From Acidobacteriota bacterium (GTDB taxonomy: Bacteria; Acidobacteriota; Vicinamibacteria; Vicinamibacterales; Vicinamibacteraceae), in contig JAEZDP010000064.1 of the NCBI GenBank assembly GCA_023418055.1, positions 687 to 64,686 of the forward strand: a stretch of DNA of 64,000 bases. Direction: 5' to 3'. The position numbers were made by a program, and so were the translations under genes. Positions 37,389 to 42,279 of the stretch are shown here, piece by piece. How positions within the stretch are numbered: position 1 is the first letter of the stretch; each line of letters begins with the position of its first letter. The notes beneath the pieces were generated by a model. It was not told where the DNA came from and made no database searches. It saw only the letters and a list, made by a program, of their open reading frames with translations.

Positions 37389-37613
37389 CTATCCGAGCCG
37401 GAACAGGTAGCGCAGCAGGCCCGCGTTGAGCGCCAGGCACGCGAGGCTGGCGAGCGCGGCGGGCCACACCACCGAGGTGTCGCCGCCCAGATAGGCATTC
37501 ATCGTCGCCGTCAGCAGCCACAACTGCAGGACGACGATCACCACCACCACCAGCAGGATGCCGTTGACGATGGTGAGGCGCTGCCGTCGGCTCACGCGGG
37601 TGCGGCCGGTCAT
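37389..37613 (-). CDS. Small two-TM membrane protein, last gene of the Mo/Rieske operon
   Basis: 74 aa ([34 protein letters not shown]...ALASLACLALNAGLLRYLF). ATG 37613 overlaps the Rieske stop (ATGA). It is the C-terminal part of track ORF 37389..37805. Confidence 0.6.
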   Translation of the reverse strand: MTGRTRVSRRQRLTIVNGILLVVVVIVVLQLWLLTATMNAYLGGDTSVVWPAALASLACLALNAGLLRYLFRLG

Positions 37614-38173
37614 GTCGGGGCCTCGTCGACGCCCGTCGCGTAGATGCCGTCCCCGCGGACCTCGACGTGCACCCTGGGCAGCGCACGAGGTGGGGGTCCG
37701 GCGACCGGCTGGCCTGTGTGGAGATCGAACCAGCCGTTGTGGCAGGGGCAGTGCAGCCGGCCCTGCTCGACGGCCGGTACGACAGGGCAGAGGAGGTGCG
37801 TGCACTGCTGGTCGTAGGCGACGTAGCCGCGCTCGCCGGTGCGCACGAGCAGGCGCGGCGTGCTGCCTGCAGGGTAGGTGAACGTCTTGGCGCCGCCGAC
37901 CGGCAGTTCGTCGAGGGCGGCAATCCGGGTGGCCGGCGCCGCGGCGGCGGCGGGCCGCAGGCTCTTCAGCACAATCCAGAACTGGCCGGCGACGAAGGCC
38001 GCGCTCGTCAGCACGATGAACTTGGCGAGTTCACGCCGCGAGACGTAGTCGTCCTGGCCGGCGTCGATCGGGAAGTCCTGCCGCCAGCGGGGCTGCACCT
38101 CGTGGGGTGCGCCGTCGGGCGGCGTCGTGAGGCGGTCGGACGGACTGGCGTGTGGGGCCGGTCGGGGAATCAT
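37610..38173 (-). CDS. Membrane-anchored Rieske [2Fe-2S] protein, bc-complex/arsenite-oxidase type
   Basis: 187 aa. Box I is CTHLLC and box II is CPCHNG (CTHLGC/CPCHGS type, including the extra disulfide Cys). SRRELAKF plus a hydrophobic helix ([17 protein letters not shown]) resembles a TAT signal-anchor. The ATG overlaps the upstream stop (ATGA). Confidence 0.9.
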
Positions 38174-38826
38174 CGCGTGGGGTCTCCCACGGCCGGCGGT
38201 GCGTCGGCGTCGAAGGCGTTGTCCAGCACGTCCTGCGTGATGGTGGGCTCGTGCATGGCCGCCGTCACGTCCACGATGGCGTCGGCAGTGGCAGCCGGCA
38301 TCATCAGCTGCACCTTCGTGCGGATGACCTGACGACCGAACTGGAACGTATTGACCGGTGCGGCGTTCGGTCGCAGGCGACGCATCTCCTCACGCGTGCC
38401 GAAGGCGAGCGCCTGGCTCGGACACACCGACGCACACCACGGCTTGAGGCCGACCGACGTGCGGTCGTAGCACATGTCGCACTTCATCATCAGCGACATG
38501 CCGGTCTGCATCTTGGGCACGCCGAAGGGGCACGCCAGCACGCAGTTGTTGCACGCGATGCAGCGGGGCTTGCGCGCCGTCTGCACGATGCCGTCCTCGG
38601 TGCGCTTGATGGCATCGGCAGGGCAGACCTCCGCGCACGTGGGCGTGTCGCAGTGCAGGCAGACGACCGGTGCGGTCTGCGTGGAGTGCGCACGGTCCAC
38701 GTAGTCGAGTTGAATCATCGACTGGCCCTTATGCGTGTCGCACTCGGTGCACGCCTGGATGCAGGCCTGGCAGCCGATGCACCGGGCCGGGTCGATGAAG
38801 AACTCGTAGGTCTCGGGGACGGGCAT
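38170..38826 (-). CDS. Four-cluster 4Fe-4S ferredoxin subunit (DmsB/NrfC/HybA-like)
   Basis: 218 aa with GGAGGAG before ATG 38826. There are four Cys groups: [37 protein letters not shown] and CDMC...CASVCP. Confidence 0.9.
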
Positions 38827-38839
38827 GCGACTCCTCCGC

Positions 38840-41131
38840 TCATTGTTGCGGCCCGAGCACCGACGCGTAGTCGGGCGGGCCGTCGGCCTTGCGCACGCGC
38901 ACGGCGCACACCTTGTACTCGGGGATCTTCGAGATCGGATCCTGGGCTGAGATCGTCAACTGGTTGGCGCTCTTGCGGCCGCCCCAGTGATACGGGATGA
39001 AGACCGTGTCGGGACGGATCGTGGCCACGACGGCGGCGCGCAGCGTGCACGTGCCGCGTCGGCTCTCGGCCGTGGTCCAGTCGCCGTCGGCGATGCCGAG
39101 TCGGGTCGCCAGCCGCGGGTGCATCTCGATGCGCGGCTCCGGATAGTTGTCCACCAGCGGGCCGATGCGCCGCGTCTGGTTCCCCGACAGGAACTGACTG
39201 ATGACGCGTCCGGTCGTGAGGATGATCGGGTAGTCCGCATCCACGTCCTCCGCCGGACCGACGTACGGCGTGACGTTGAAACGCGCCTTACCGTCAGGGA
39301 AGTAGAACGGGCCGCTGCCCTTCGCCACCGGGTTCCACGAGCCCGGTTCGAACAGACGTCGTGTGCCCTGCGGCCCTGGCGGGGTGACGCCTGCGGGCGT
39401 CTCGGCGGGGCACGGCCAGAAGACGCCGAAGTGCTCGTCGATGTGCTCGTAGGTCACGCCCGAGTAGTCGGACACGCCGCCCTTCGACGCGACACGCAGT
39501 TCCTCGAAAATCTCGCGAGGGCTCTCGAAGCTCATGCCTTCGGGCCTGCCGAGGGCGCGGGCGATGTCCTGGATGATGCGCCAGTCCTGTCGCGCGTCAC
39601 CTGGGCATTCCACCGCCTTGTTGATGCGCACGATGCGCCCTTCGACCTGCGTCACGGTCCCTTCGTCCTCTTCCTGCAGCGAGCCCGGCAGCACCACATC
39701 GGCGTAGCGTGAGGTCTCGCTCATGAAGAAGTCGATCGCCGCGTAGAACTCGAGCTTCTGGAGCGCCTCGCGGACGAAGTTGTTGTCGGGCAGGGAGACC
39801 ACGGGGTTGAAGCAGAGGCTGAGCAGCCCCTTGATCTCGCCCGCATGCGCCTTGCGCATGATCTCGTACGCGTCCACACCGGGCGGTGGCAGGTCGTCGG
39901 GGGACATGCCCCAGACGCCGGCCACGTAGGCGCGATGTTCGGGGTTGCCGAGGTCGCGCCCGCCCGGCAGTTGATCGCACTTCTGGCCGTGCTCGCGCCC
40001 GCCCTGTCCGTTGGCCTGCCCCGTGATGGTGGCGTAGCCGCAATCGGCCCGGCCGATGCGGCCCGAGGCGAGCACGATGTTGATGGCGCTCAGCACGTTC
40101 TTGACGCCGTTGCTGTGATGCTCGAGCCCGCGGGCGTGCAGCAGGAAGCTCGTGCGCGCCGTGCCCCACCATTCCGCCGCCTGGCGGATGCGCCCTTCAG
40201 CGATGCCGGTGACTTCGGCCGTGCGCGCCGGCGTCCACGGCGCGACCTCTGCCTCGACGTCGGCAAAGCCGACCGTCTGTGCCGCGATGAACGCCTCGTC
40301 CACCCAGCCGTGGGCCAGCATCAGGTGCAGGATGCCGTTGAAGAGCGCGGTGTCGCGGCCGGGTTTCACCGGCAGGAACAGGTCGCACGTGCGGGCCAGC
40401 GGCGTGATGCGCGGATCGACGACGATGACCTTGGCCCCGCGCTCGCGGGCCTGCCAGATGTAGTTGGTGGTGATGGGCGCACATTCGGCCACGTTGGCGC
40501 CCGCCACGAGCACGACCTCGGCGCCGAGGATGTCGCTCCACGGGTTGGCGGCCCGGTCGACGCCGAAGGCCTTCTTGTTGCCTGCGGCGGCGCTCACCAT
40601 GCACAGCCGGCCGTTGTAGTCGATGTTCGACGTGCGCAGGCACATGTGGGCGAACTTGCCCATCAGGTACGTCTTCTCGGTGGTGAGGCTCGCCCCAGAC
40701 AGCAGGCCGAAGGCGTGCGGCCCGTGCTCGCGCTGGATGCGGGCGATCTCGCCGGCCACGCGCGTGATGGCCTCGTCGTACGGTAGCGGACGGAACTCGC
40801 CACCGGCCGCACGGTCGCGGGCGTAGGCACGCACCAGCCGATCCGGATGGGCCTGCTGCAGATAGCGCTTCACGCCCTTGGGGCACATCATCCCCTGGTT
40901 GAAGGGGAAGTCGTACCACGGCTCCACGCCGATCACCGTGTTGTCCTTCACCTTCAACTGCATGCCGCACTGCTGCCCGCAGAAGCAGCAATGCGTCTTG
41001 ACCAGCCGATCCGGGACCCCCTCGGCGCCGGTCCTGTCGCCACGTGTGTGTGCGAGCGACGGGCCGAACGTGCCGATGACGTCCAGGTCGAGTTCGGGTT
41101 GCGGCAGCGGCGGGCCGGCAGGCGATGTCAT
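38840..41131 (-). CDS. Molybdopterin (bis-MGD) oxidoreductase catalytic subunit, assimilatory-nitrate-reductase (NasA/NarB)-like; no signal peptide
   Basis: 763 aa from ATG 41131 (ATGA overlap with the upstream gene). The N-terminal 4Fe-4S motif is [10 protein letters not shown]...MMCPKG. The predicted Mo ligand region [20 protein letters not shown] and [13 protein letters not shown] resemble Nas/NarB enzymes. No RR motif occurs in the first 40 aa. Confidence 0.9.
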
Positions 41132-42279
41132 GGGTAGAAGTTCTCCGCATCCTCGCGACCGAGGGGCCCCTGTCCGACACCGGTGTTGACGTGCACGGGC
41201 ATGGGCCGCACCGCTGACGCGTCGGTGGGCGCGCCGCCGCCGCGGCGGCCCTGCCACGCCAGCGCCTGGGCCGTCACAAACGACGCCCGGCGGCACCTCG
41301 GGCAGATCCACTGGTAGTGCCCGGCGGGGTCGTCAGGCAGGTTGTAGTCGAAGCCGAGCCGGCGCTGTACCTCGATGAGATCTTCCACGTGCATGCGCGA
41401 ACTGAAGGCGTGCCCGCACCGGCGGCACAGGGCCGGTTCGCCGTCACGCCCGGCGTCCTTGTAGAAGGTCACGCCCAGCTGCGCGGGGCGCTGGAACACG
41501 TGAAAGAACTTGCCGAAGGGCAGCCACAGGAACGTGCCGATCACCGTCACCGCGTGCAGGATGGCGATGAACGTGTACGCGTAGCCCTTCATCCAGGTGT
41601 AGCTGGCCGTCAGCATCAGGCCCGTGATGCTCACCGCAAAGAGCAGGATGAGGGGCATGAAGTCTTCGACGAAGCGCTGCACGGCCATCGGCCCCTGCTC
41701 GCGCATCCGCCGCCGCATCGCCAGCATCACGCCGGCGATGACGAGAAACGACGACCACACCAGGCCGTGAAAGAGCAGGAACGCGATGAGCGAGTCGTGC
41801 GGAAAGCGGAAGGCGGGGAAGCCGAAGACCATGGCTTCGTAGAGCGCCAGGTCGTCCTGCACCGGCCGGAAGTACAGCCAGCCGAACACGAGCGGGAAGG
41901 TGATGGCGACGGCCAGCAGGCAGCCCCACATGATGAGCAGGTGGGTGATGCCCCGCAGGCGATCGCGCGCGAAGATGAAGCGGTTGGCGAGCACGTCCAC
42001 GCCGACACGCTGCACGCCGGTCGCCACGTTGCGCAGGCGCCAGCCGCGGCGGAAGAACGCCTGCCATCCCCGCCGCCAGTAGAGGCCGGTCGGCGGCCGC
42101 TGCAGCCACATGGCATAGCGGTAGGTGAGACCGAAGGTGGCAAAGAGCACGGCAAACGTGTAGGCCACCAGCGCCGCGTCGAAGTGGGCGAGGTTGCGCG
42201 AGCCCACCACGATGAGGGCGGCCAGCGCCAGCGTGAAGCCCAGGCCCCACGCCACGGATCGAGTCACGGCGGACGTCAT
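41128..42279 (-). CDS. NarI/DsrM-like dihaem cytochrome b membrane subunit with extra N-terminal helices and a C-terminal CxxC...CxxC tail
   Basis: 383 aa from ATG 42279. His pairs have the E. coli NarI spacings: [11 protein letters not shown] (10 apart) and [19 protein letters not shown] (18 apart). The NarI-family PF.K..H motif is present. The tail reads CRRCGHAF...(about 35 aa)...CPRCRR. Confidence 0.8.

Follow-up and report, generated by a model that had tools for sequence, protein, structure and literature searches.

Why would a catalytic subunit that resembles the soluble assimilatory nitrate reductases be encoded in one operon with a four-cluster iron–sulfur protein, a membrane cytochrome and a Rieske protein? 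This question is raised by five genes at positions 37389–42279 of a 64,000-nucleotide stretch of DNA, here called the window, from contig JAEZDP010000064.1 of an Acidobacteriota bacterium in the family Vicinamibacteraceae (assembly GCA_023418055.1). We regard the operon as that of a complex iron–sulfur molybdoenzyme/nitrate reductase, in which known modules occur in a combination that has not previously been characterised. Judging from sequence comparisons, its product is probably a nitrate reductase complex bound to the membrane, with the active site on the cytoplasmic side and electrons supplied by the quinol pool. We infer its substrate, the direction of electron flow, the quinol donor, the side of the membrane on which each subunit lies and the physiological role from the evidence set out below.

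A conserved five-gene operon

The window carries five coupled minus-strand open reading frames (ORFs) encoding proteins of 383, 763, 218, 187 and 74 amino acids (aa). We refer to the genes as B (membrane subunit), A (molybdenum (Mo) subunit), C (iron–sulfur (FeS) subunit), D (Rieske subunit) and E (DUF6755 protein), so that the operon reads B-A-C-D-E. These genes, their junctions and the candidate promoter are as follows.

41128–42279, minus strand: gene B, membrane subunit of 383 aa with six transmembrane (TM) helices, predicted to be a distant cytochrome b of the NarI/HdrE/QmoC/TcuB type with a cytoplasmic C-terminal Cys4 motif (CxxC...CxxC), from weak NCBIfam and profile matches
38840–41131, minus strand: gene A, Nas-like catalytic subunit of 763 aa with a Mo-bis(pyranopterin guanine dinucleotide) (Mo-bisPGD) centre, without a twin-arginine signal (Pfam Molybdop_Fe4S4, Molybdopterin and Molydop_binding)
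38170–38826, minus strand: gene C, 4x[4Fe-4S] electron-transfer subunit of 218 aa, without a signal or TM helix (Fer4_11, four Cys motifs)
37610–38173, minus strand: gene D, Rieske [2Fe-2S] subunit of 187 aa with a motif of the twin-arginine translocation (Tat) type and one TM anchor (PF00355)
37389–37613, minus strand: gene E, DUF6755 small membrane subunit of 74 aa with two TM helices (PF20540, E = 5e-31)
41128–41131, minus strand: ATGA overlap of the membrane and Mo genes (ccATGAca), read from the sequence
38827–38839, minus strand: 13-nucleotide spacer of the Mo and FeS genes, gcGGAGGAGtcgc, between stop codon and ATG, with a GGAGGAG ribosome-binding site, read from the sequence
38170–38173, minus strand: ATGA overlap of the FeS and Rieske genes (gcgATGAtt), read from the sequence
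37610–37613, minus strand: ATGA overlap of the Rieske and DUF6755 genes (acATGAcc), read from the sequence
42326–42354, minus strand: sigma-70-like promoter match, TTGACG-17-TAGGAT, just 5' of the first gene, a consensus match only

A first-pass annotation of the window had claimed this gene order, with these sizes and coordinates, and both the sequence and independent public gene calls confirm it: all five lengths are reproduced in the calls on two public contigs that carry an identical membrane protein. The junctions it described were likewise seen on direct reading, with three ATGA overlaps and the single 13-nucleotide GGAGGAG spacer coupling the five genes. In a scan for sigma-70 consensus sites, no second promoter-like site was found between positions 37000 and 42700, and none lies within the five-gene cluster. 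The position of the promoter match favours the 383-aa start at 42279 over the start of a 413-aa ORF.

To place the operon among its relatives, one genome per GTDB species was scanned, which yielded at least 593 confirmed relatives of the catalytic subunit. The locus counts given here rest on the best 80 of these (Mo subunit 69–93% identical). The FeS, Rieske and DUF6755 genes lie 3' of the Mo gene, in that order, at 67 of the 69 loci with at least 2.5 kb of downstream sequence, the two exceptions being Planctomycetota loci, while the membrane gene stands directly upstream of the Mo gene at 73 of the 74 loci with at least 1.5 kb of upstream sequence. The first-pass proposal turned in part on the Rieske and NarI-like genes remaining neighbours of the catalytic gene in other genomes, and these counts show that they do. 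The five genes are a conserved, self-contained module.

The best 80 loci carry the labels of at least eight phyla, with Acidobacteriota, Gemmatimonadota, Myxococcota, Chloroflexota, Planctomycetota, Rhodothermales/Kapaibacteria and Acidimicrobiia among them. Herpetosiphon sp. NSE202 is a cultured carrier among the best loci, and the closest to the window among the matches listed is a Vicinamibacteraceae metagenome-assembled genome (MAG). The same five genes, at 56% identity, are found on a plasmid of the cultured Deinococcus psychrotolerans, where they are flanked by two genes of the major facilitator superfamily (MFS). Phylum labels are intermixed in the tree (a Chloroflexia locus, for example, groups with a Rubricoccaceae locus at 94% bootstrap), and across different phyla the Mo subunit is 70–80% identical at these 80 loci; together these observations point to frequent horizontal transfer of a six-gene unit made up of the five genes and a transporter. 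The Deinococcus plasmid copy (locus L084) adjoins insertion sequence (IS) elements. At another locus (L058; CAZXCE010000467.1, labelled 'uncultured Clostridia bacterium'), the Mo subunit shares 97% identity with proteins of Acidobacteria MAGs and falls in the tree beside sequences of the Blastocatellia type; this contig is probably misbinned or mislabelled, and its Mo gene acidobacterial.

A Nas-like catalytic subunit

Profile searches found the Molybdopterin, Molydop_binding, Molybdop_Fe4S4, Fer4_11 and Rieske domains in the products of the operon. For the Mo subunit, the top curated model was NasC (NF047855), at 749.9 bits against a cut-off of 1100. The remaining models gave 546 bits for the alpha subunit of formate dehydrogenase (Fdh; cut-off 666), 352 for haloarchaeal NasA (cut-off 1000), 251 for NapA (cut-off 904), 130 for AioA (arsenite_ox_L; cut-off 359) and 60.8 for narG (TIGR01580; cut-off 1084). 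When the protein was aligned with NasA, NarB, NapA and Fdh references, the Mo ligand context, GRLCMVSA, was seen to have the Cys-Met of Nas and Nap, whereas Fdh has Cys/Sec-His. In addition, the column of FdhH Arg333 is occupied by Thr, within a motif nearly identical to that of Deinococcus grandis NasA, and a TGQxNGQGGRE motif is common to the Mo subunit and NasA. The best model, the Cys-Met context, the TGQxNGQGGRE motif and the lack of the Fdh His and Arg333 all argue for nitrate chemistry. The four-Cys FS0 motif is present as well. An identity as formate dehydrogenase was rejected on the Met that follows the ligand Cys and the Thr at the Arg333 column. No twin-arginine motif was found at the N-terminus of the window protein or of its homologues, and no NapB or NapD neighbour was found. 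The earlier description of the catalytic subunit as Nas-like and free of a signal is therefore upheld by the NasC model, the nitrate-reductase active-site signatures and the missing signal.

The first-pass annotation also raised the question of whether this subunit falls within a clade that has already been characterised. In a small neighbour-joining tree, its family stands apart as a clade of its own with a single long stem. Identity of the Mo subunit to the compared references of Nas, NarB, Fdh and Nap does not exceed 38%, the value for the nearest of them, D. grandis NasA. The D. grandis nasA gene sits in a classical nirBD-nasA-narK cluster. Among the family members seen, the Mo subunit has a length of 733–773 aa. 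When the PDB was searched with the Mo subunit, no Nas or NarB structure was among the matches; the best solved relatives were cytoplasmic formate dehydrogenases, followed by Desulfovibrio NapA.

A probable distant relative of NarI in the membrane

Gene B was first described as encoding a dihaem cytochrome b of the NarI type. A distant relation to that superfamily stands, on profile evidence, but the protein has no Pfam match and six TM helices, and one of its candidate haem ligands, H171, is only half conserved. Among NCBIfam models, the membrane subunit has significant matches only with TcuB (E = 3e-7) and QmoC (E = 1.5e-6), in both cases with the membrane domain, at scores of 30 bits for the TcuB subfamily model (cut-off 524), 25 for the TcuB equivalog model (cut-off 247) and 28 for QmoC (cut-off 300). 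Using a diverse profile of 37 members, obtained from a search of 1.84 billion representatives (1337 clusters, E ≤ 0.001), we found E. coli NarI as the top match in the PDB (E = 5e-4), with H242 and H260 of the membrane subunit aligned to H187 and H205 of NarI (HAvtVi...PFGKLFH against H187...PFSRLIH205). Moreover, 21 of the 37 diverse members touch the Pfam family Nitrate_red_gam, below its cut-off (best E = 1e-5). A family alignment of low diversity gave E = 0.38, out of register, when compared by hhalign with three NarI sequences, and 0 matches when used as a profile query against the PDB. An AlphaFold 2 (AF2) model of the subunit was weak, with a predicted local distance difference test (pLDDT) value of 67; a Foldseek search with it placed NarI chains at the top probabilities (0.72–0.85) among G-protein-coupled receptor (GPCR) noise, at E ≥ 0.24, which we take as no more than suggestive. 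We conclude that the membrane subunit is a predicted, distant cytochrome b of the NarI/HdrE superfamily.

Residues conserved throughout the family are H113, H242 and H260, together with C285, C288, C326 and C329. The subunit combines six TM helices with a C-terminal Cys4 domain, whereas NarI has five TM helices. Because the His pair aligns with NarI H187 and H205, the window protein is predicted to have one haem site at each membrane face. The second His of the type found in NarI TM2 is missing. At H171, the candidate for the fourth haem ligand, about half of the family have His and most of the rest Asn; the ligand of the outer haem may therefore be a residue other than His or one from another subunit, and some members may lack this haem altogether. 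Some family members carry His at the position of Y136 instead of H171, and some have neither. By the positive-inside rule, the subunit is N-in/C-in, with loops 49–113 (13 Lys and Arg residues) and 183–206 and the tail 256–383, which holds the four conserved Cys, on the cytoplasmic side.

Neither Pfam nor NCBIfam has a model for the membrane-subunit family, whose members are named 'hypothetical' or, wrongly, 'MFS transporter' in databases. Three proteins (P0243, P0292 and P0348) are natural fusions in which an MFS transporter is joined to the N-terminus of the membrane subunit, an arrangement consistent with the N-in topology. Such fusions may lie behind the label 'MFS transporter' that NCBI gives to stand-alone membrane subunits. 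One protein so labelled is the stand-alone subunit of D. psychrotolerans (L084:7880–8992, WP_124875302.1).

The FeS, Rieske and DUF6755 subunits

The best NCBIfam matches of the FeS subunit are DmsB, HybA and FdnH-beta, and its best PDB match is FdnH (E = 7e-23). For the Rieske subunit, the best NCBIfam matches are AioB (48.7 bits, cut-off 95.7) and actinobacterial QcrA, while the best matches in the PDB are the Thermus bc Rieske protein (1NYK/3FOU, E = 2e-11), QcrA and AioB. At least 90% of 72 Rieske homologues have the motifs CTHLxC and CPCH, with both of the Cys that form the disulfide, and the same is true of an N-terminal motif, QPxWRxDFPID. In the sequence CPCHNGWF, Gly and Phe take the places of the Ser and Tyr of bc1-type motifs (CPCHGSxY), from which a lowered redox potential (Em) of the Rieske centre may be expected. 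The claim that the operon includes a bc-type Rieske protein is thus borne out, the protein being of the bc/Aio type by family models, structure matches and conserved motifs. The family consensus ahead of the TM anchor, S-R-R-D-F-V-K-F, is a textbook Tat motif, of which the window has the variant SRRELAKF. No in-frame fusions between adjacent core genes, of the kind that could fix the topology of the Rieske subunit, were found.

The last gene of the operon encodes a member of a family that is named but uncharacterised, DUF6755, which it matches at 107.3 bits (Pfam cut-off 27). It lies 3' of the Rieske gene at 70 loci, and its product has a conserved loop, LQLWLxTAxMNAYLGGD. None of the papers found by literature search mentions DUF6755.

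An anion transporter accompanies the module

Since gene calls based on GC frame are noisy in high-GC loci, neighbours were counted by tblastn with defined queries against the 80 loci, and this was complemented by one Pfam scan of 126 other flanking ORFs. In the window, the neighbour in question is the following gene.

42338–43573, plus strand: divergent NarK-family-like MFS transporter (MFS_1), 411 aa if translation starts at the first GTG, 401 aa in public calls

This protein matches the NarK family model TIGR00886 with E = 1.6e-62 and 212 bits, under the cut-off of 312. A NarK-like MFS gene was found at 25 of the 80 loci and a SLAC1/TehA-family anion channel (PF03595, verified by Pfam) at 44, the latter nearly always directly after the DUF6755 gene (for example, L002:4999–6198). 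One or the other is adjacent to the cluster at 62 of the 80, and of the 54 loci whose flanks extend for at least 1.5 kb on each side, 51 have a NarK, SLAC1 or CLC transporter. NarK and SLAC1/TehA are seldom found together and so seem to replace each other beside the cluster. The pattern further points to a role of bacterial SLAC1/TehA homologues as channels for nitrate and nitrite. The nitrate/nitrite-type transporter that the first-pass annotation had linked to the operon is accordingly a near-obligatory neighbour and is, in the MFS fusions, physically joined to the membrane subunit.

The partners of classical assimilatory enzymes were not seen. NirB and NirD were adjacent at 0 of 80 loci by tblastn, the 25 families met most often in the 126 flanking ORFs scanned included none of the NIR_SIR type, and no ferredoxin/flavodoxin, NADH or NirBD/NasB/NasG partner genes were linked. 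NarJ is absent from the window and from the core of the 80 loci and was seen only beside full narGHJI. The earlier statement that the window has no nitrite reductase and no NarJ/NapD-type gene proved correct: neither a nitrite reductase nor NarJ was found in the rest of the window, whose other genes are unrelated to the operon.

Among genes of nitric oxide (NO) stress and redox regulation, RIC/ScdA was found at 12, hemerythrin-type genes at about 15, Crp/Fnr at 7 and Rrf2 at 3 of the 80 loci. At one locus (L081:508–13735), a complete narGHJI set, a NarK-like MFS gene and a hemerythrin gene lie directly upstream of the cluster on the same strand; NarG, NarH, NarJ or NarI matches occur at 2–3 of the 80 loci scanned. 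The NarH/NarI homologues of loci L002 and L035 cluster with the L081 copies. No recurrent arsenic or antimony resistance or sensing genes were found among the neighbours. As the 126 other flanking ORFs show no recurrent Pfam family, the conserved unit is the five genes plus an anion transporter, set in varied contexts. The neighbouring NMO gene, which had been offered as supporting context for an N-oxyanion substrate, did not hold up, being a neighbour at only 3 of 80 loci; NMO, cupin and DUF6265 genes were rejected as functional context, as they are neighbours only in close relatives.

A proposed membrane-wired nitrate reductase

In the scheme that we favour, nitrate would enter, and nitrite leave, through the linked NarK-type or SLAC1/TehA-type transporter, and nitrate would be reduced at the Mo-bisPGD centre of the Nas-like subunit. 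Quinol would be oxidised at the outer face near the outer haem (H242 with H171), as in NarGHI, and electrons would reach the Mo centre through the four-cluster subunit and the [4Fe-4S] cluster of the catalytic subunit itself. The four-cluster subunit would be docked at the cytoplasmic haem (H113/H260) of the six-helix NarI/HdrE-type cytochrome b, since NarI, HdrE, DsrM, QmoC and TcuB each pass their electrons on to FeS proteins in the cytoplasm. The scheme thus predicts the FeS and Mo subunits on the membrane face of the Cys4 tail and loop 49–113, and the Rieske head on the other face, close to H242 and the hairpin at 133–163. The catalytic side would be cytoplasmic because the Mo and FeS subunits have neither signal nor TM helix, and because the membrane subunit is predicted to be N-in/C-in with basic loops and a Cys4 tail. 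On the strength of the SRRDFVKF family consensus and the conserved disulfide Cys, the Rieske head would lie on the outer (P) face beside the outer haem, anchored by its Tat-type signal, where it might be part of quinol oxidation or link the wire to periplasmic carriers. Three options can be named for its role: a Qo-like quinol site, an inlet from periplasmic donors, or a structural or regulatory part. The DUF6755 protein would be a small structural membrane subunit. As for physiology, the lack of a linked nitrite reductase and the recurrence of NO-stress, Fnr-type and nar genes nearby incline us towards a dissimilatory or redox role over a classical nas pathway.

A number of observations weigh against this scheme. 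The Mo subunit scores under the cut-off of its best model, NasC. The relation of the membrane subunit to NarI is weak (no Pfam match, an hhalign E of 0.38 and no Foldseek match below E 0.1), and the fourth haem ligand is not kept across its family. The charges flanking the Rieske anchor are ambiguous (Lys plus Arg 3.1 before, 3.5 after), and the Mo and FeS subunits, which have no signal, could be exported along with the Rieske subunit by means of its Tat motif, as in AioAB. No maturation chaperone is linked to the cluster. Furthermore, the presence of a four-cluster chain and a Rieske protein in one complex is unexplained by a plain NarGHI-like scheme. Finally, the sole functional claim for a look-alike cluster is periplasmic, quinone-reducing Sb(III) oxidation by NaoABC (PMC11521347), to which we return below.

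Comparison with known systems

With NarGHI, the operon as interpreted here has in common its overall logic, with a Mo subunit predicted to face the cytoplasm, a multi-cluster FeS subunit, a putative dihaem b of the NarI superfamily across the membrane and a linked NarK. However, NarG has an Asp ligand, whereas the Mo subunit of the operon is Nas-like with Cys; NarH is about 500 aa long, whereas the FeS subunit has 218 aa and is FdnH/DmsB-like; and the operon has six TM helices and a Cys4 tail in its membrane subunit, no NarJ, and an added Rieske and DUF6755 protein. The closest sequence relatives of the catalytic subunit are NasC, NasA and NarB, with which it shares active-site motifs and a predicted cytoplasmic location; the operon differs in its four-cluster subunit, its putative cytochrome b in the membrane and its Rieske protein of the bc type. 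In AioAB and IdrAB, too, the Mo-bisPGD subunit has no signal of its own and is partnered by a Rieske subunit with a Tat motif and the disulfide Cys; Aio differs in lacking a four-cluster subunit and a membrane cytochrome b, and in that both of its subunits are periplasmic. The pNar systems of haloarchaea and Methanoperedens consist of an outward-facing, NarG-type enzyme (NarGH) with a Rieske protein and a bc-type cytochrome b. While pNar is therefore also a nitrate reductase with a Rieske protein and a b-type cytochrome, the operon has a signal-less Mo subunit of the Nas type and a cytochrome b of the NarI/HdrE type, and no cytochrome b Pfam family of the bc type matches any protein of the cluster. 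QmoC, TcuB, HdrE and DsrM resemble the membrane subunit as six-helix haem b modules of the NarI superfamily that pass electrons to cytoplasmic FeS partners; in contrast to them, the membrane subunit has no fused FeS domain and ends in a Cys4 tail like that of a zinc ribbon or rubredoxin.

The closest published look-alike was described by Wang et al. 2024, who found two clusters in an uncultured Symbiobacteriaceae bin and named them NaoABC, a nitrate-dependent Sb(III) oxidase (PMC11521347). Besides hypothetical ORFs, these clusters contain naoA (Mo-bisPGD, 2040 and 2124 bp), naoB for a 4Fe-4S protein and naoC for a Rieske protein that has a TM helix at its N-terminus, and pieces of 5.5 and 6.7 kb were cloned into R. 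palustris, also carrying narGHI; the authors concluded that NaoABC is a periplasmic, quinone-reducing Sb(III) oxidase (PMC11521347). The Nao data are deposited as reads only (PRJNA862653), and the likeness to our operon, which rests on description, lies in the order of a Mo, a 4Fe-4S and a TM-anchored Rieske gene, in the hypothetical ORFs and in the name 'molybdopterin oxidoreductase family protein'. The two differ in that the assigned Sb(III) oxidation and periplasmic topology are opposite to the scheme favoured here, and the paper does not discuss a membrane subunit, DUF6755 or a transporter link. The Nao cloning primers match none of 93 loci, and two scans of contigs from Joint Genome Institute (JGI) metagenomes came back empty. 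We think it likely that Nao is a relative of the five-gene system. Even so, comparison favours nitrate over antimony as the primary substrate, given the residues of the active site, the association with NarK/SLAC1 genes, the fusions to MFS proteins, the lack of ars-type neighbours and the very wide distribution. The first-pass view of the operon as undescribed holds in so far as our literature search found no description of the five-subunit set as a nitrate reductase, but has to be qualified by the publication of a look-alike cluster with Sb(III) oxidation (PMC11521347).

Alternative explanations

Were the operon to work as proposed for NaoABC, it would encode a metalloid oxidase whose Mo and FeS subunits are exported together with the Rieske subunit, so that Sb(III) or As(III) is oxidised in the periplasm, electrons pass through the membrane subunit to quinone and NarGHI uses the quinol. 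The Tat motif on the Rieske subunit and its absence from the Mo subunit are as in AioAB, and narGHJI adjoins the cluster at L081, with NarG/H/J/I matches at 2–3 of 80 loci. The order of the Nao genes and their nearest families (DmsB for NaoB, AioB for NaoC) are the same as those of the operon's FeS and Rieske subunits. The cloned Nao pieces, moreover, exceed the roughly 3.3 kb estimated for three nao genes, leaving room for B and E, and expression in R. palustris gave about 22 µM Sb(V) along with 13C uptake (PMC11521347). Nao is, however, known by description only, its primers being absent from the loci and JGI contigs searched, and the naoA1 and naoA2 products (679 and 707 aa) are shorter than the 733–773 aa of the operon family. 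The active site is nitrate-reductase-like, with a Cys ligand and a four-Cys FS0 motif, whereas AioA has no protein ligand to Mo and a 3Fe-4S cluster. The NarK/SLAC1 gene that nearly always adjoins the cluster and the fusions to MFS proteins speak for an anionic substrate in the cytoplasm; no ars- or antimony-type genes recur nearby; by homology, proteins of the NarI/HdrE type dock their FeS partners on the cytoplasmic face; and a spread over hundreds of soil species suits nitrate more than antimony. Taken together, these data make metalloid oxidation quite improbable as the function of the operon. The opposite direction of nitrogen chemistry is harder still to credit: cytoplasmic nitrite would be oxidised to nitrate, with electrons passing outward through the haems b to the Rieske protein and periplasmic acceptors, as has been proposed for cytoplasm-facing nitrite oxidoreductase (NXR). 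A transmembrane wire that ends at a P-face Rieske centre would suit this, and the linked transporters could exchange nitrite and nitrate. Nevertheless, the catalytic subunit is Nas-like and not NarG/NxrA-like (61 bits against the narG model), the lineages named in the host labels are mostly heterotrophs and not known nitrite oxidisers, and no cytochrome c or oxidase genes are linked, all of which leaves nitrite oxidation very unlikely.

Two further explanations keep nitrate reduction and concern the partner proteins. In a bc-like bifurcation, one electron of quinol would go to the Rieske protein and a periplasmic cytochrome c or cupredoxin, and from there to oxidases or Nir/Nor/Nos, while the other, low-potential electron would pass through the haems b and the four-cluster chain to the Nas-type Mo centre, nitrate replacing the Qi site as its sink. 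This would account for a bc-type Rieske protein on the P face beside a dihaem b, and denitrification and NO-stress genes recur near the cluster. Centres of the Nas/NarB type are reported to work at lower potentials than Nar, which would give a reason for a Rieske partner. On the other hand, the operon contains no acceptor of the cytochrome c1/f type, the membrane subunit is NarI-like and not a bc-type cytochrome b, with no Qo-site motifs that could be claimed, quinol-driven nitrate reduction is already exergonic, and the scheme is purely inferential; we regard it as quite unlikely. At the other extreme, the catalytic gene could be an ordinary soluble assimilatory nitrate reductase (nasA/nasC) whose flanking genes are unrelated to it, as the JGI label 'assimilatory nitrate reductase catalytic subunit' and the NasC best model would have it. 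This is already contradicted by the five-gene synteny, with its overlapping stop and start codons, across phyla. The score under the NasC cut-off and the separate clade also speak against it, as does the finding of NirB/NirD at 0 of 80 loci, whereas D. grandis nasA adjoins nirBD, so that we consider it extremely improbable. These arguments leave the membrane-wired nitrate reductase with a cytoplasmic active site as the explanation that we favour.

Implications

The catalytic gene is abundant, with thousands of metagenome proteins and several hundred GTDB species, and databases label it 'assimilatory nitrate reductase' or 'molybdopterin oxidoreductase family protein'; as a result, surveys of soil and water count it as nasA. 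If the enzyme is membrane-coupled, and possibly energy-conserving, the inferences drawn from such surveys would change for Acidobacteriota, Gemmatimonadota, Chloroflexota, Planctomycetota, Myxococcota and Rhodothermales. The interest of the family thus lies in its abundance, its systematic mis-annotation as nasA, its unexplained Rieske partner and its conflict with the only functional claim, that of Sb(III) oxidation by the look-alike Nao cluster, which is put up for re-examination.

The family also bears on the evolution of the wider enzyme superfamily. Large phylogenies for the DMSOR (dimethyl sulfoxide reductase) family place such catalytic sequences in 'NasC/NasA' (PMC10100899). According to Wells et al. 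2020, neither a four-cluster subunit nor a membrane-anchor subunit accompanies any member of the Fdh/Nas/Aio/Nap clade, and NasC/NasA is the probable stock from which AioA diversified (PMC7331816). The operon family contradicts the former rule and bears on the origin of AioA (PMC7331816), offering a testable evolutionary link from Nas to the Rieske-partnered Aio. In its boldest form, the argument would make the family a further major nitrate reductase architecture beside Nar, Nap and Nas, in which a Mo subunit of the Nas lineage is wired through a four-cluster FeS subunit and a NarI/HdrE-type dihaem b to a Tat-exported, bc-type Rieske protein. Its outer quinol site would act like a Qo site, sending one electron to the Rieske centre and periplasmic carriers and the other inward to nitrate, and the family would supply the missing architectural link between Nas and Aio. 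We hold this to be unlikely; if it were true, the cluster published as the Sb(III) oxidase NaoABC would belong to the family and have nitrate reduction as its main activity.

Other features of the loci and the window

Between the membrane and Mo genes of several loci from Chloroflexota and Planctomycetota stands a small additional gene, whose product of about 112 aa looks cupin-like on inspection. The positions of these inserts are as follows.

L027, 2238–2576: cupin-like insert
L030, 658–996: cupin-like insert
L040, 3662–4000: cupin-like insert
L044, 18–422: cupin-like insert
L032, 7720–7953: also a cupin-like insert

Cupin_2 genes also stand beside the cluster in the window (35522–35878) and at L081. 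Cytochrome P450 genes occur near the cluster at seven loci (for example, L003:8767–9969); an identity of these as P450nor-like was rejected, as they are generic bacterial CYPs (CYP113, CYP125 and CYP107). Directly after the NarK-like gene of the window, a plus-strand gene (43635–44945) encodes a polytopic membrane protein of 436 aa whose sole family match is to COX1, under the threshold (E = 2.5e-4); a 60% identical copy of the protein is encoded near the cluster at L001. Unclassified multi-TM proteins, which may be NnrS-like, are encoded at other loci (L020:13565–14884 and L031:3484–4608).

Elsewhere in the window, two genes on the plus strand (7802–10629) encode a Mo hydroxylase of the xanthine dehydrogenase/IorAB type (Fer2/Fer2_2 and MoCoBD_1/2), which implies that the organism uses a second class of Mo cofactor enzyme. 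On the minus strand, at 27886–34835, lie two tandem genes, unrelated to the operon, for PSCyt1/PSCyt2/PSD1 proteins of about 1100 aa each (public calls) with Laminin_G_3, a pairing typical of Planctomycetota, Acidobacteriota and Verrucomicrobiota.

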